The notes beneath the pieces are model-generated. The model made no database searches. It had not been told where the DNA came from and worked only from the letters and a program-made list of their open reading frames with translations. Source: Methanocalculus alkaliphilus (GTDB taxonomy: Archaea > Halobacteriota > Methanomicrobia > Methanomicrobiales > Methanocorpusculaceae). From it: a stretch of DNA of 32,000 nt. Both the position numbers and the translations under genes were made by a program. The stretch spans positions 39,676 to 71,675 of the forward strand of contig NZ_JALJYG010000010.1 in assembly GCF_024170505.1 (NCBI RefSeq), read 5' to 3'. Below are positions 5,597 to 11,276 of the stretch, one piece after another (the first letter of the stretch is position 1; every line of letters starts with the position of its first letter).

Positions 5597-5995
5597 GAGC
5601 AGGCTCTGTCTCTGCTCTTTCTCTCTTTGTTTTGCTCTCAGGGATTATCCTTCCCTCTCCTGATACCTGTCTGATCAGGGTCATCCCTGGATACTCTCTC
5701 TCAGAGGGATCTGACGCTGTCCTCCACCACTCTCTGACGTCTCCATCTCTTTCTCCAAAGACAGCTCAATCTCGTCCTTTCCCCTGCTCAGGGAGAGATT
5801 ACGACGAAGGAGCCTCATACCCATTGTCTATTGTGCTGATGGATCAACAAGATACCATCATGATTACCAGAAGAGTCGTGGTAAAGAAGAGATCGAAAAA
5901 AAGCTCATGATGCCCATACGGGCAACAGGCATACAAGATGAAAAAGGGGGGTTATTTCCCAGGTTTTTTCTTATACCAGTGATTTGGCTGTGCAG

Positions 5996-7093
5996 CTATC
6001 CAAGTTCATCCCAGGCACGCCGCTTCTTTATAACAACGAATCCGATCACTCCGATGATCGCACCCCCGACGATGATCCAGAGGAACGGCTTGCCCGGATC
6101 AACAACGGCGGGGAGAGATTCAATATCCTCTCTCAGATCACGTGCTTCCTGAAGCACTCTCTCCCCATCCGCTACTGCATCCCGTGCCTGGGTCTGGGCC
6201 CGTGCATAATTTCCGGTCTCGTATGAGTCTTTTGCCGTATCAACAAGATTTTTGATACTCTGCCGCTTGGAGGTGAGCAGGATGACACGGGAGTCGCTTG
6301 CTCTTCCTCGTTCATTTGAGAGATAGTCGATGATACCATCGATCTCGGCAACGTATCCTTCTGCTTTGCTGATAGAGTGCTGGACGATCGTCTGTTCGAG
6401 GAGAGTCTCTGCCTCTGCGATCTGTGTCTGTGCAGCGTTCAAATGTGTCTGTGCAGTTGCAACATTCGCTCCGGCGGCCTCCGCACTCTCAAGGGAGACT
6501 TTTGCAGCATTATATTTTGTATCAATATTTGCAGTATCAACCCCGTCGTCATGAGCATTGTCGATAGCTGTTTTTAATACCTGCAAATCTGACTTTGCTG
6601 AGACAATTCTGGTTTGTACTTCTGCCGGATTAATGACCGTTCTGGTTACGAGGAACTCTTCCCGAACATTATCAGAAGAACCGAGCTGGCGAATTCGAAT
6701 AATGGATTTATCCCCGGTTGTCGATACTTCCGGCACTGTTCCTTCAAGGTTGACACGAACACTCACATCGAACGGGTAATTAAGCTCCCAACCCGATATT
6801 CTTGTTGTCCTGAAACCTGTCGGTTGACGTGGATTATCGATCCCATCAAGAACAATTGTATAGGTCCACCGTGGAGAGTCGAGATCTGTAAAGAGCTGTA
6901 AGGAATTATCATCCGGGATGGTAGTTCCATCTGTATGTTTAAAGCTGACAGTTGTATCGATGGTCAGTTTCGTTCCGGGTGCCAGATCTCCAGTTGGTAT
7001 GCCTGATGGCGGCTGAACCGTAAAGGCAGAAACCGATACGGCACAGAGTGCCAGGAAGGCGATAAGTATCAGTAATAATCGTCCTTTTTTCAT
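5996..7093 (-). CDS. Exported coiled-coil protein with a C-terminal membrane anchor, function unknown, in an operon with cetZ
   Basis: Signal peptide MKKGRLLLILIAFLALCAVSVSA (7025-7093). About 140 aa of beta-rich domain follows, then an Ala/Gln/Glu-rich helical region (about 6104-6601). The C-terminal TM is PFLWIIVGGAIIGVIGFVVI (6029-6088), followed by a 10-aa tail KKRRAWDELG. The SD GAGGAG overlaps the cetZ stop, with a 9-nt gap. Confidence 0.8.
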   Translation of the reverse strand: MKKGRLLLILIAFLALCAVSVSAFTVQPPSGIPTGDLAPGTKLTIDTTVSFKHTDGTTIPDDNSLQLFTDLDSPRWTYTIVLDGIDNPRQPTGFRTTRISGWELNYPFDVSVRVNLEGTVPEVSTTGDKSIIRIRQLGSSDNVREEFLVTRTVINPAEVQTRIVSAKSDLQVLKTAIDNAHDDGVDTANIDTKYNAAKVSLESAEAAGANVATAQTHLNAAQTQIAEAETLLEQTIVQHSISKAEGYVAEIDGIIDYLSNERGRASDSRVILLTSKRQSIKNLVDTAKDSYETGNYARAQTQARDAVADGERVLQEARDLREDIESLPAVVDPGKPFLWIIVGGAIIGVIGFVVIKKRRAWDELG

Positions 7094-7102
7094 ATTTTCT
7101 CC

Positions 7103-8263
7103 TCACTCAAAGAGCGGATCAATGGCATCTTCAAACATCGTCGACTGCCGCTCCTTGGATCTGATGACGTCCTGTTTTGTCTCTTTTGCTACTTCAAGCA
7201 GTTCGGTGATCCGGGGGGCATTCCCGATCGTGGCGAGGACGACGACAGCTGCGATGTATGTCGAATCGACAGGATAGTCGCCGCCTCTCACCTCAACCCC
7301 TGCAATGTTCTCTTCGACCCATGACTTTGACTTCTCAACACCTTTTCTGTCAAGTTCATCGGGTGGTCCGGCAACCAGAACGAGCGCACGTTCGGCGGTT
7401 GTGTAGTCACAGGGAAGGGTCAGGCGGCCGAGCATGGCTCTTCGTATAAGTCCGATGATCTTCGCGGACTTATCCTCTCCGGTAAGGAGATTCTCTCCCT
7501 TATCCTTCCGGGTAAATGCTGAGAAGATACTCTTCTTGGGTTTGCTCTTTGTGATCACATCAGAGATTGCATAGCCGATGGTTGAGATGCCACCGCCCCT
7601 GAGGGTGTTGATGATCTCAGACGAATCCACGACCATCTCACCAACACCCAGCTTTCCAACCTCTCCCGCACGGAAGAGAACTCCGAACCGGCGGACCAGC
7701 TCTTCATTCAGACGCTCATATGCGCTCTTGACGCTCTCCCCTTCGTTCTTCCACGCACTGTTATCGAAGATGAAGGTGTTGTCAGCTTCATTGACAAGGG
7801 TGGCAAGACTGCGGGCGGCATTATACGAGTAGAGTCGCCCTTCTTCGGGGGCTGGAATCATTCCGAGGGCATAGACCGGTTCCCTGTAGATGCGTTTCAG
7901 GTGGCGGCAGAGCACCGGGGTTCCCCCGGATCCCGTTCCACCGCCCAGGCCGGCGACGACGACGAAAGCATCGATATCATGGGTTCCTCTGGTGTCGATC
8001 GCATTGATGATGGTGTCGATCTCGTCCGCTGCGATCTTGGCACCGGTCACATTATCGGTCCCCACACCGTGCCCTTTAACCACAGTCTGGCCGATAAGGA
8101 GACGGTCTTTCATATCGATGTGTTTCAGGCCCATCAGGTCGGTTCGTGCCGTATTTACGGCAATACCACGGAAACTGCCATACTGGAGTTTCCGATCCAT
8201 GGCAAGGAACATATCAACGATCTTCCCCCCGGCCTGTCCGAATCCGATGAAAAATACTCGCAT
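7103..8263 (-). CDS. cetZ: Tubulin/FtsZ-superfamily GTPase, CetZ type
   Basis: The sequence MRVFFIGFGQAGGKIV...VVVAGLGGGTGSGGTPVL carries the tubulin signature. The downstream NAARSLATLVNEADNTFIFDNSA region is typical of archaeal CetZ rather than FtsZ1/2. Confidence 0.85.
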   Translation of the reverse strand: MRVFFIGFGQAGGKIVDMFLAMDRKLQYGSFRGIAVNTARTDLMGLKHIDMKDRLLIGQTVVKGHGVGTDNVTGAKIAADEIDTIINAIDTRGTHDIDAFVVVAGLGGGTGSGGTPVLCRHLKRIYREPVYALGMIPAPEEGRLYSYNAARSLATLVNEADNTFIFDNSAWKNEGESVKSAYERLNEELVRRFGVLFRAGEVGKLGVGEMVVDSSEIINTLRGGGISTIGYAISDVITKSKPKKSIFSAFTRKDKGENLLTGEDKSAKIIGLIRRAMLGRLTLPCDYTTAERALVLVAGPPDELDRKGVEKSKSWVEENIAGVEVRGGDYPVDSTYIAAVVVLATIGNAPRITELLEVAKETKQDVIRSKERQSTMFEDAIDPLFE

Positions 8264-8384
8264 TTAGATGACACCATCCATACTAATGATTTTACCTTTG
8301 GTATCCTCACTATATATGACTTCTTAGTTTATTGGGTTAAGAGATTCAAAAACTTTCTTATGCTCCTGATAGCACAATTATTAC

Positions 8385-9614
8385 ATGCATATCTGCGTAA
8401 TCGGTGGAGGACTCACCGGCCTTTCGGCGGCACTACGGCTCTCCGGAGATCATACGGTGACTGTTCTTGAGATGGATGAAGAGCCCGGGGGGTGCCTCTC
8501 ATCCTATCGGCTCCCTGATTACGCGATCGAGTCGCTGTACCATCACTGCTTCTCCGGGGATCGGCATCTGCTCTCTCTTATAGATGAGCTTGGTCTTACT
8601 GACCGACTCGAATGGCTGAAAGGGAGTACCGGATACATGGTCGGAGGGAGGATCTCACCGCTCACTACTCCGTTTGAAATTCTTCGCTACCCTCATCTCT
8701 CTCTCTTTGAGAAGATCCGGCTCGGTCTCTTTGTTCTTGGATCAAAGAATACGGATTACAAAAGCCTTGATGAGATCCCGGCAGAGAGATTCATCCGGGA
8801 AAAACTGGGTGATCAGATCTATCGTTCCTTCTTTGAGCCGCTCCTCAGGTCAAAATTTGGAGAGAGGCGTTCGGAGGTCTCCGCTGCCTGGCTGATGAGC
8901 AGGATAGCAATCCGATCTGATCGTGGATCAGAGGGTGAACGGCTCGGCTATCTTCAAAATGGGTTTGCAGAGCTCATCGATGCTCTCCTCCTGAGGCTGG
9001 ATGAGATGGGCTGCATGGTGCAGACAGGCCACCGGGTCTCCTCTCTTGAGGCAACAGAAAATGGATGGCTGGTGGATGGTGAGAGGTATGACTGCGTCAT
9101 ATCAACCCTTTCTCCACAGGAGACGGGGCGTCTCTCCTCTCTTCCCCTTTCACCTCTTCCATACCAGGGGTCTGCCTGCCTCACCCTTGCAACATCCTCC
9201 GATCCGACGGAGGGGATCTACTGGGTGAATATCGGAGATTCTGCCCCCTATGGTGCCGTGATTACGCATACAAACCTGGTACCGTTTGAGAGATATGGAG
9301 AGCATATTGTCTACATCGCATCCTACTTCTCAGGAGACCCTCCGGCAGATTGTGAGGAGCTCTTCCTCTCGGACTTCTGCTCCCGCTTCTCGGTTCCGAG
9401 ATCCTCGATCCATTGGCACCGCCTCCGCATCGAGCAGTATGCAGGCCCCGTCTATCTGACCGGATATCGTTCAATGATACCAGATCAGAATCCTGCCCCT
9501 GGTCTCTTCATTGCAGGGATGTTTTCGTTTGAGAATTATCCGGAACGAAGTATGGATGGATCCGTTGCAGCGGGCGAGGCGGTTGCCCAATCTGTTATGG
9601 GGTGGTTGTCATGA
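8385..9614 (+). CDS. FAD/NAD(P)-dependent oxidoreductase (amine-oxidase / phytoene-desaturase / protoporphyrinogen-oxidase-like fold)
   Basis: The N-terminal dinucleotide-binding motif is MHICVIGGGLTGLSAALRLS...VLEMDEEPGG. It is 409 aa long and is the first gene of a 4-gene overlapping module. Confidence 0.75.
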   Translation: MHICVIGGGLTGLSAALRLSGDHTVTVLEMDEEPGGCLSSYRLPDYAIESLYHHCFSGDRHLLSLIDELGLTDRLEWLKGSTGYMVGGRISPLTTPFEILRYPHLSLFEKIRLGLFVLGSKNTDYKSLDEIPAERFIREKLGDQIYRSFFEPLLRSKFGERRSEVSAAWLMSRIAIRSDRGSEGERLGYLQNGFAELIDALLLRLDEMGCMVQTGHRVSSLEATENGWLVDGERYDCVISTLSPQETGRLSSLPLSPLPYQGSACLTLATSSDPTEGIYWVNIGDSAPYGAVITHTNLVPFERYGEHIVYIASYFSGDPPADCEELFLSDFCSRFSVPRSSIHWHRLRIEQYAGPVYLTGYRSMIPDQNPAPGLFIAGMFSFENYPERSMDGSVAAGEAVAQSVMGWLS

Positions 9615-10321
9615 TGGAGGTATCAGCGGTCATTCCCGTGTTTAATGACAGAAAGGCACTTGAAAGAGCAATTCCTGAATCTATCCGGCGACTTGAGGAG
9701 ATCACCGGATCATTTGAGCTTCTCATTGCCGAAGACGGCTCCAATGACGGGAGTGCTGAATATGTCCGTTCATGGGAAGAGCGCGATCCCCGTGTCCGCC
9801 TCCTTCATGCCGATGAACGGCTCGGACGTGGCCGTGCGCTGAATCGTGCGTTTGCGGAGTCACAAGGAAAAATCTTCTGCTATTATGATGTTGATCTTGC
9901 AACCGATATGGTACATCTTGCCGATCTCATTGGTGCCATCCGTGATGGCTGTGCTATCGCAACCGGATCCCGACTGATGCCGGATTCGGCAATCGATCGG
10001 GGCCATGGGCGTGAGATTGCAAGCAGAGGGTATAACGCCCTTGTCCGTTTCTTCCTGGGAAGCCGCCTCTATGATCATCAGTGCGGCTTCAAGGCATTCT
10101 CCCGGGATCTCCTCACCTCCCTCCTCCCCGCTGTCCAGGCACCACACTGGTTCTGGGACACCGAGATCCTTGTGCTTGCAGAGCGTGCAGGGTACCGTGT
10201 CTGCGAGTTCCCCGTTGTCTGGAGGCAGGGTGAGCAGACAACAGTGAAATTCTCCGATGTAACCGGAATGGGATCAGACATCCTGAAACTCTGGTGGCGC
10301 CTCCATGCTTCGAAAGATTAG
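9611..10321 (+). CDS. Family-2 glycosyltransferase, polyprenyl/dolichyl-phosphate hexose synthase-like (DPM1/ArnC-like)
   Basis: VIPVFND...LIAEDGSNDGS...YYDVDL...HQCGFKAF are GT-A/GT2 DxD and acceptor motifs. The ATG at 9611 overlaps the upstream TGA (ATGA). The track start is GTG at 9602. Confidence 0.8.
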   Translation: MMEVSAVIPVFNDRKALERAIPESIRRLEEITGSFELLIAEDGSNDGSAEYVRSWEERDPRVRLLHADERLGRGRALNRAFAESQGKIFCYYDVDLATDMVHLADLIGAIRDGCAIATGSRLMPDSAIDRGHGREIASRGYNALVRFFLGSRLYDHQCGFKAFSRDLLTSLLPAVQAPHWFWDTEILVLAERAGYRVCEFPVVWRQGEQTTVKFSDVTGMGSDILKLWWRLHASKD

Positions 10322-11276
10322 TACCGTCATTCTTTCAACGCTCCTTGCGGCTGGATTAATCATTTTTCTCCTCTCCCGTGTATGGGATGAACTTCTCATC
10401 ACGCTCCATGAAGCAGATCTCCGGTTTCTCCTTCTTGCAACTCTCATCTGCCTTGCTGCCTGGTACCTTCGGGGCTGCCGGTACCGGTTCATCCTCTCCC
10501 GACTCTCAATAGCAGTCGGGGCCATCTTCTCGACAGCCTGTATCTTTGTCTCCCAGACGGCAAATCTGATCATCCCGGCACGGCTGGGGGATCTCATCAG
10601 ACTTCTGATCCTCAGGCATGAGAAGGGGACGACCTACTCGACCGGTCTCTCCTCCCTCATCGTTGAGCGTGTCTTTGATATCATCACCATCGCCCTTATC
10701 GGTGCAATTGCGCTTCCGTTCGTCGTCACCCAGGCGACATGGTTTTCAACGCTCATCGGTGTTACACTGCTTGGAGGGCTTCTCTTCATCATGGTTCTCC
10801 TCTTCTCCGGAAGATTCTCTTCGGAGAACCGTATTTTTGGAAAGATTCTGAAGATCCTGGATGAGATCCGCACCGTCTCAGGAACCACATCTGCCCTCGC
10901 GATTCTTTCAGTCTCATCCATTGCCATCTGGATCATCGACTGTATCATCTGTGCGATGGTTGCGATGATGTTTGGAGAAGTGGTACCCTTTCAGGTGATC
11001 GTTTTAGCCATTGTCATCGGCAACCTCGTCAAGGCTGTTCCGATTACCCCGGGCGGTGTTGGTACCTATGAGCTTGCTCTTGCCCTGACATTTGAGCTTG
11101 CCGGGGTTACACCGGGAACGGCGGTTCTTATTGCCATCATCGATCATCTCATCAAGAATCTGGTGACGCTTGCAGGCGGGGTCGTTTCCATCTACTACTT
11201 TGGGGAATGGACGCTTGCATTATTGAAGCGGGCATACTCAGGGGATATCAGGGGAGAGATCAATGGTCGGAGCTGA
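10305..11276 (+). CDS. Flippase-like membrane protein (UPF0104 / LPG_synthase_TM domain, as in the MprF N-terminal flippase)
   Basis: 323 aa with about 8 TM helices. It carries the motifs PARLGDLIRLLIL and VPITPGGVGTYELAL characteristic of this family. It overlaps the GT2 stop by 17 nt. Confidence 0.7.
   Translation: MLRKISTVILSTLLAAGLIIFLLSRVWDELLITLHEADLRFLLLATLICLAAWYLRGCRYRFILSRLSIAVGAIFSTACIFVSQTANLIIPARLGDLIRLLILRHEKGTTYSTGLSSLIVERVFDIITIALIGAIALPFVVTQATWFSTLIGVTLLGGLLFIMVLLFSGRFSSENRIFGKILKILDEIRTVSGTTSALAILSVSSIAIWIIDCIICAMVAMMFGEVVPFQVIVLAIVIGNLVKAVPITPGGVGTYELALALTFELAGVTPGTAVLIAIIDHLIKNLVTLAGGVVSIYYFGEWTLALLKRAYSGDIRGEINGRS

Follow-up and report, generated by a model that had tools for sequence, protein, structure and literature searches.

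Membrane proteins that hold a cytoskeletal polymer to the cell envelope are the closest described systems for the pair of genes reported here. In bacteria, the single-pass protein RodZ ties the rod-shape polymer MreB to the envelope side; the N-terminus of RodZ is inside the cell, and a folded helix-turn-helix domain in the cytoplasm makes the contact with MreB. ZipA, FtsA and SepF, the tethers of FtsZ, and CdpA of haloarchaea associate with the membrane and with a polymer of the tubulin superfamily; in these systems a short conserved terminal peptide sits on FtsZ and a folded pocket on the tether. In the linker of nucleoskeleton and cytoskeleton (LINC) complex, a tail-anchored KASH protein presents a short conserved C-terminal peptide past its transmembrane (TM) helix as the docking site for SUN, by which cytoskeleton-linked proteins are joined across a membrane. 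In this work, we analyzed a stretch of 32,000 nucleotides (nt) of Methanocalculus alkaliphilus (hereafter the window), in which a gene for a CetZ1-type GTPase of the tubulin/FtsZ superfamily, cetZ, is followed on the minus strand by an open reading frame (ORF) for a single-pass membrane protein of an undescribed family, here named the partner. The two genes form an ancient two-gene unit, widespread in the phylum that includes Methanomicrobiales, Halobacteria and ANME-1 (anaerobic methanotrophic archaea 1).

The partner resembles the described systems in some respects and departs from all of them in others. Like RodZ, it spans the membrane once and would accompany a cytoskeletal polymer; unlike RodZ, it has only 10 cytoplasmic residues, located at the C-terminus, the polymer is tubulin-like and not actin-like, and there is no relationship in sequence or fold between the two proteins. 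The folded polymer-binding cytoplasmic domain that characterizes ZipA, SepF, FtsA and RodZ is missing, with about 10 residues past the TM helix, and the partner is no homologue of ZipA, FtsA, SepF or CdpA. The short peptide is here carried by the membrane protein, such that CetZ1 or an adaptor would supply the pocket. The likeness to KASH-SUN is an analogy in the position of the peptide; compartments and partners are quite other ones and there is no homology. By analogy, the partner may work in the manner of the ZipA, SepF, FtsA and RodZ tethers without being a member of those families.

How CetZ proteins act is stated as not understood at the molecular level in the main comparative CetZ study. 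According to a preprint, changing the tail of CetZ1 from LESLF to AESGG abolishes rod formation, and no ligand of this tail was named, which makes a missing partner plausible. Halobacteria-like CetZ proteins have also been reported in Archaeoglobales. The genetic neighborhoods of haloarchaeal cetZ1 and cetZ2 were previously analyzed by archaeal clusters of orthologous genes (arCOG), and near cetZ1 the study found nolA, cofC/G/H, pur genes and regulators, with no downstream membrane protein discussed; in Methanomicrobiales, only CetZ outside the Halobacteria-like branch was considered there, with few similarities. We found no description of the partner family in the literature, and the tag of its Haloferax volcanii member, HVO_2203, appears in none of the main texts searched, although other papers may exist.

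Results

The cetZ gene and its partner are linked throughout Methanomicrobiales

The product of the window cetZ matched Pfam families PF21011 (CetZ_C, 1.1e-72) and PF00091 (1.2e-28), both over the cut-offs. Its best match in the PDB was CetZ1 of H. volcanii (4B46, 7.3e-123, residues 1-378), and matches to CetZ2 (4B45, 2.6e-78) and to the CetZ of Methanosaeta (3ZID, 3.9e-22) were weaker, which places the protein among the "Halobacteria-like" CetZ of Methanomicrobiales. In fact, all traits of the CetZ1-like subgroup were found in it: the GTPase domain, CetZ_C, closest similarity to CetZ1 and the conserved hydrophobic C-terminal tail, here ...IDPLFE.

We searched for the partner and for a CetZ1-like gene, each on its own, in 151 genomes of the order. 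The partner was present at full length in 147 of them and the CetZ1-like gene in 148, and the two genes were adjacent and on the same strand in each of the 140 genomes where adjacency was testable. This number is made up of 123 of the 143 genomes with a listed cetZ, decided by coordinates, two further genomes (G024 and G036) and 15 that were fetched and checked, 14 with complete partners and one whose partner runs off the contig; loci ending at contig edges and the second paralogue of one fragmented genome were left out. Across these loci the CetZ proteins are 73-99% identical, versus only 29-72% for the partners. Linkage of the downstream gene to cetZ in relatives, which the earlier note had set beforehand as a test of its proposal, is therefore complete in the testable genomes of the order and reaches into distant classes as well.

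The partner family follows the CetZ1-type gene across the phylum

For the census of the phylum, we ran a family-wide partner profile and the window CetZ separately against one set of 301 genomes, 253 of them outside the order. Both genes were detected in 111 of these 253, the partner only in 8, the CetZ1-like gene only in 26 and neither in 108; related genomes are not independent in such a census, and no probability is attached to the counts. Nine families without a CetZ1-like gene, represented by 96 genomes, had no partner at all. The presence of the partner family thus tracks that of the CetZ1-type gene. The only clade with family members yet without a CetZ1-like gene (E <= 1e-80) is family f12, whose genomes are 75-91% complete; its members (loci L131-L134) are 268-312 amino acids (aa) long, have no cetZ neighbor and end in PPRKKL or TRAKL, with no W-D-x-L.

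Among the 58 genomes outside the order with both coordinates listed, the genes were adjacent in 32 and apart in 26. All 26 belong to family f8, which we take to be probably Archaeoglobaceae, and all retain both genes and the tail. Further sampling found the partner next to cetZ also in families f11, f15 (ANME-1/Methanophagales), f17 (metagenome-assembled genomes labelled UBA148 or Methanocellales), f18, f20, f26, f28, f29 and f31. The remaining neighbors of the pair vary by clade: cofC and nolA in haloarchaea, an ubiX-like gene in f8, and a glycosylation operon in the window.

Within f8 (loci L050-L065 and L089-L093), the pair is together in about a dozen genomes besides the 26 sampled genomes in which it is split. 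In sister genera the partner is followed by the ubiX-like gene; in one of the split genomes cetZ itself borders on this gene, as it would after excision of the partner from its slot.

The C-terminal pentapeptide is the most conserved part of the partner

In an alignment of 58 orthologues, the terminal WDELG-COOH has zero entropy (58/58), and mean identity to the window protein is 22-40% in the signal peptide, beta-sandwich, helices, linker, TM helix and basic cluster. One separately fetched orthologue has FDELG instead. The earlier note had called the cytoplasmic tail conserved-looking; no other part of the protein is in fact as conserved. A second invariant position, Gly351 (58/58 sequences), lies in the TM helix near the cytoplasmic face. 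Over all clades, the family-wide alignment has L71, G118 and P121 as invariant residues.

Outside the order, the terminal peptide takes other forms (Table 1), and the distribution of tail types matches the clades of the CetZ tree, consistent with co-inheritance of the pair. The CetZ proteins themselves end near [LI]-x-P/S-L-F in all sampled clades, as in LESLF of H. volcanii.

We then looked at family members that are not linked to cetZ. In Methanomicrobiales, many genomes have a second family member at another place, and 14 such unlinked paralogues (loci L162-L175, 402-467 aa, soluble) share the beta-sandwich and the helical region; none is near cetZ, all 14 are devoid of both the C-terminal TM helix and WDELG, and they terminate in a conserved amphipathic helix (...LSSLLSMASDN). 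One additional unlinked copy has a TM helix and ends in RWDEY. An exhaustive profile search over 1.84 billion representatives returned 726 family members (E <= 0.001). Of the 148 best, 51 end in WDELG; many others share the architecture and have tails of unrelated sequence. The module of TM helix plus tail is restricted to the copies linked to cetZ. In the window genome there is also a 388-aa relative with two tandem beta-sandwich domains (L070, 3196-4362).

The haloarchaeal counterpart is HVO_2203

A search with the single window sequence outside the order gave only weak matches, which lie directly after CetZ1-like genes (50-60% identity) and whose tails read WDELR/K, WDRLG or YDKLG. In haloarchaea, 26 of 30 cetZ1 loci have an ORF of 250-270 aa that overlaps the end of cetZ1 by 23-35 nt and codes for a signal peptide, one C-terminal TM helix and a tail of the type YD[KR]L[GR]. 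The profiles of the methanogen and haloarchaeal proteins aligned with hhalign over their whole length, signal peptide and last residue included (98.9% probability, E = 2.4e-17), and in this profile-profile alignment the haloarchaeal version appears without about 120 residues of the helical region.

In H. volcanii the homologue is HVO_2203 (D4GVD6), annotated as "conserved hypothetical protein", a 264-aa ORF between cetZ1 (HVO_2204) and cofC. The CetZ of this locus is 100% identical to PDB 4B46 over 395 residues, and the position of the cetZ1 locus agrees with the NC_013967 coordinates in a published table. HVO_2203 is like the window partner in its place directly after cetZ1 and in its architecture, with YDKLG as its tail; it differs in being about 100 aa shorter, in its reduced helical region and in an overlap of 32 nt, such that its start lies inside the 3' end of cetZ1 (locus L129, 3306-3337). 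Both HVO_2203 and CetZ1 have been detected as proteins in H. volcanii proteomes, where fuzzy clustering by abundance put both in cluster 12 of 14, each under the membership cut-off; from the listed values we calculated a correlation of r ~0.92 between their abundance profiles over six conditions. The overlap implies that deletions of the whole cetZ1 ORF, or chromosomal C-terminal tags, may disturb HVO_2203. A preprint describes that plasmid-borne cetZ1 complements a cetZ1 deletion only partially.

Architecture of the partner protein

The AlphaFold2 (AF2) model of the partner, built from 58 homologues, has a mean predicted local distance difference test (pLDDT) score of 87.7. The N-terminus has a KK n-region, a hydrophobic core modelled as a helix (residues 3-16) and a cleavage-like site between VSA and F; the pattern occurs in all orthologues and points to a signal peptide. 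It is followed by the Ig-like beta-sandwich and by an antiparallel bundle of five helices (156-182, 188-206, 211-261, 268-292 and 296-325), which a flexible linker joins to the single TM helix. We infer that the ectodomain is outside and about 10 residues are cytoplasmic. The signal peptide, the beta-rich ectodomain, the single C-terminal TM helix and the tail KKRRAWDELG that the earlier note had read from the DNA are all recovered in sequence and model; its coiled coil is not, as AF2 predicts the helical bundle in its place. In the haloarchaeal, f17 and f15 versions, alignments give a helical region shorter by about 120 aa. The 13-nt direct repeat noticed earlier in this region, TGTGTCTGTGCAG, is real and occurs exactly twice, versus 0 expected in shuffles; it codes for a duplicated A-Q-T within a helix, and we found no broader significance for it.

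Sequence searches of Pfam, NCBIfam and the PDB assigned the partner to no family above threshold. The match to the SEC10/PgrA surface exclusion domain (TIGR04320) reached 26 bits against a cut-off of 70 and covered 80 helical residues only. With Foldseek, the N-terminal domain gave only generic Ig-like, pilin or cohesin matches (TM-score ~0.5, target side), and the whole protein gave none. All 115 database homologues, found in Methanocalculus (72% identity in M. chunghsingensis), Methanoregula, Methanoculleus, Methanospirillum, Methanogenium and Methanocorpusculum, are named "hypothetical protein", and none has a Pfam domain. We propose to define the new family by a signal peptide, a beta-sandwich with the motif G-T-x-P-x-V, a helical region, one C-terminal TM helix, a basic cluster and a short conserved C-terminal peptide, in a gene directly after a CetZ1-type gene; by sequence, AF2 model, family alignment and linkage, the window protein has each of these traits.

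The window locus

The gap between cetZ and the downstream partner gene is exactly 9 nt (7094-7102), and the junction on the minus strand reads ...TTTGAG TGA GGAGAAAAT ATG, with the GGAG Shine-Dalgarno 5 nt ahead of the partner ATG (7093-7091). The positions of the two genes and the ribosome-binding site at the cetZ stop are thus as the earlier note had placed them (Table 1). The TGAGG junction recurs in most orthologous loci, where the gaps are of 2-13 nt or the frames overlap. By inspection, the final 100 nt of cetZ contain no AT-rich promoter-like element. This, together with the short gap, the TATA-like box before cetZ and the T5 tract after the partner, suggests that both genes are co-transcribed, as does the correlated abundance of the two H. 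volcanii proteins, and their translation may be coupled.

Divergent from cetZ, the plus strand at 8385-11276 of the window has Pfam matches to an amine-oxidase-like flavoprotein, a family 2 (GT2) glycosyltransferase and an LPG-synthase-TM-like protein. In haloarchaea, the gene ahead of cetZ1 is the sugar epimerase gene nolA, such that genes for surface glycans lie beside cetZ1 in both clades.

A CetZ1-like duplicate was seen in 7 of the 8 genomes of the genus. In the window genome there is, in addition, a third, divergent CetZ-like ORF of 657 aa (G000:C1, L069 3972-5945), 32% identical over the core and extended at its C-terminus by about 270 aa. Upstream of it are two ORFs, one CheC-like and one histidine-kinase-like.

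Table 1. Elements of the cetZ-partner locus in the window, and forms of the terminal peptide of the partner in the sampled clades
Feature	Position	Strand	Basis
cetZ, CetZ1-type tubulin/FtsZ-superfamily GTPase, 386 aa, end ...DPLFE	7103..8263	-	ORF, Pfam and PDB matches
Partner gene, 365-aa type-I (bitopic) membrane protein, undescribed family	5996..7093	-	ORF; no Pfam, NCBIfam or PDB family
cetZ stop TGA (7105-7103) and abutting GGAG Shine-Dalgarno (7102-7099)	7099..7105	-	direct sequence reading
Putative signal peptide, aa 1-23 (MKKGRLLLILIAFLALCAVSVSA, then F)	7025..7093	-	sequence; AF2 helix 3-16
Predicted extracellular beta-sandwich (Ig-like), aa 24-153, motif G118-T-x-P121-x-V	6635..7024	-	AF2 strands, pLDDT mostly >85
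Predicted extracellular five-helix bundle, aa 156-325	6119..6628	-	AF2, pLDDT >90
Single TM helix, ~aa 338-355 (AF2 helix 337-362)	6029..6082	-	AF2; G351 conservation
Cytoplasmic tail KKRRA-WDELG-COOH, aa 356-365 (WDELG at 5999-6013)	5999..6028	-	alignment
13-nt repeat TGTGTCTGTGCAG, two copies (6423-6435, 6444-6456)	6423..6456	+	exact matching
TATA-like element CATATATA, possible operon promoter, ~50 nt upstream of cetZ ATG	8311..8318	-	inspection only
Oligo-T tract (T5) CCCCCTTTTT, possible archaeal terminator, ~50 nt past partner stop	5941..5945	-	inspection only
Tail, Methanomicrobiales: WDELG			
Tail, f8: WDEL[RK]			
Tail, f17: WDRLG			
Tail, f20 and f28: WDKLGR			
Tail, f26: WDRL			
Tail, f18: RWERL			
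Tail, f11: RWGRL			
Tail, Halobacteria: YD[KR]L[GR]			
Tail, ANME-1 (f15): KRG[VI][YF]			
Tail, f29: RPPLG			

Discussion

The adjacency of the two genes across classes whose other neighbors differ, their co-occurrence, the retention of both after unlinking and the limitation of TM helix and tail to the linked copies together make a strong genetic tie, and we regard it as quite likely that CetZ1 and the partner act in the same process. In the mechanism that we propose, the exported, single-pass partner would face the envelope or the S-layer with its Ig-like beta-sandwich and helical bundle, and would act together with filaments of the CetZ1 type on the inner side of the membrane. Its terminal peptide would be a short linear docking motif for CetZ1, either for the subunit or for the surface of the filament, such that docking would tie a defined structure outside the cell to the tubulin-like cytoskeleton; or else CetZ1 may position the partner in the envelope. 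Compared with the FtsZ tethers, the logic would be reversed: the membrane protein would bring the peptide and the polymer the pocket. Taken as a whole, that is, a partner acting with CetZ1 filaments, a docking tail and coupling to the envelope, we give the proposal a slightly better than even chance. Direct contact of the tail with CetZ1 is a possibility that we put somewhat short of even. That WDELG, or YDKLG in Haloferax, docks on CetZ1 filaments, which would make the family the first transmembrane proteins dedicated to coupling a tubulin-family cytoskeleton of archaea to the S-layer or envelope, is put forward more tentatively still.

Several observations weigh against an obligatory or a direct link. 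The window genome has a second CetZ1-like paralogue (G000:C7:21928-23088; L068 3929-5092) without a partner, 88-89% identical and with the same DPLFE end, and a thermosome gene about 210 nt after it. In the haloarchaeal groups f25 and g40, cofC comes directly after cetZ1 and the partner is missing from its slot, and in genera g88, g117 and g130 a genome-wide search did not find the partner, which the same search recovered at 1e-112 in a control genome. As several lineages keep CetZ1 without it, the partner is an accessory factor and not an obligatory anchor. The proposal of the earlier note, a candidate envelope partner for CetZ, is in this respect sustained genetically by the linkage, the co-occurrence and the tail in linked copies, but not for an indispensable role. 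The CetZ1 of partner-less haloarchaea is as conserved as that of other haloarchaea (85.3% identical to CetZ1 of H. volcanii, versus 86.5%) and has the same tail; when we contrasted CetZ1 from partner-less and partner-bearing haloarchaea for a relaxed surface, only V35, E185Q and I369 recurred, all of them conservative. Besides, the partner tail is strongly divergent in ANME-1 and f29, whereas the CetZ tail hardly changes, and CetZ1 was reported in a preprint to bind liposomes in vitro without other proteins, so that a protein anchor is not strictly needed. Charge differences between clades do not help either: 19 CetZ columns differ in charge class according to whether the third tail residue is acidic or basic, with a full K/R-E/D swap at 368, but in the CetZ tree one branch, with 99/96 support, sets all acidic-tail clades apart, so that there is only one transition, and this covariation of CetZ and tail carries no weight.

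The same data can be read in other ways. The partner could belong to the pathway of CetZ1 without touching it, taking part in envelope or S-layer remodelling during shape change, with its tail read by a third, cytoplasmic adaptor that possibly reads the acidic-hydrophobic tail of CetZ1 too. Linkage and co-occurrence fit this arrangement equally well, both proteins end in short conserved peptides, CetZ1 surfaces are unchanged where the partner was lost, and between clades the tail of the partner varies far more than that of CetZ; however, no third gene is conserved beside the pair, its neighbors being clade-specific, and a 10-residue tail held at the membrane suits a ligand located there, as CetZ1 filaments are, so that we consider the adaptor rather unlikely. 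Another explanation is that the genes are operon neighbors with no functional link, in which case the partner would be an ordinary surface protein kept by inheritance, and its tail a signal for topology, stability or turnover. Basic and aromatic residues are indeed often found after a TM helix as features of topology, several lineages do without the partner, and the fold search gave no hint of a function. Nevertheless, adjacency persists across classes in which all other neighbors are different, the partner was found in none of the 96 genomes sampled from families that have no CetZ1-like gene, the paralogues unlinked to cetZ have no such tail, and an invariant pentapeptide at the extreme C-terminus, past the basic cluster, exceeds what a topology signal calls for; we judge a mere neighborhood to be clearly improbable.

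Two known classes of archaeal surface proteins were also considered. The Pilin_N model (PF07790) matches residues 4-70 weakly (E = 0.005), pilin domains are among the Foldseek matches, and Brown and Duggin reported pilus regulons near cetZ2 and Thermococcales cetZ, all of which would suit a type IV pilin-like protein with a class III signal peptide. The match, however, is of 18.1 bits, below the gathering cut-off of 25.2 bits, the N-terminus looks Sec-type, its hydrophobic core being followed by an AxA-like site, a C-terminal TM helix with a cytoplasmic tail is foreign to pilins, and there are no pilus assembly genes beside the pair; a pilin is very improbable, and we rejected this assignment for the Pilin_N score and the Sec-type N-terminus. 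As for a sorting signal of the PGF-CTERM kind, by which an archaeosortase would cleave the protein, attach a lipid anchor and remove the tail, the succession of PGKPF, TM helix and KKRR in the genus has a superficial likeness to the tripartite signal, but PGKPF is confined to the genus and other orthologues are unrelated at this place, the conservation sits after the basic cluster, unlike in such signals, and no NCBIfam sorting-signal model matched at E <= 0.01. The genus-only PGKPF and the conserved five-residue extension past the basic cluster led us to reject the archaeosortase substrate, which is hardly conceivable here.

The partner is a concrete, previously undiscussed candidate for the link between CetZ filaments and the envelope, and it is conserved from methanogens to haloarchaea. 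Through HVO_2203 the family is also placed in the genetic model H. volcanii, where it is open to standard tools. The proposed coupling, if true, would account for the passage of shape information from CetZ1 through the membrane; if the partner does not bind CetZ1, it would still stand for an unnamed, widespread family of archaeal surface proteins with a striking C-terminal motif.

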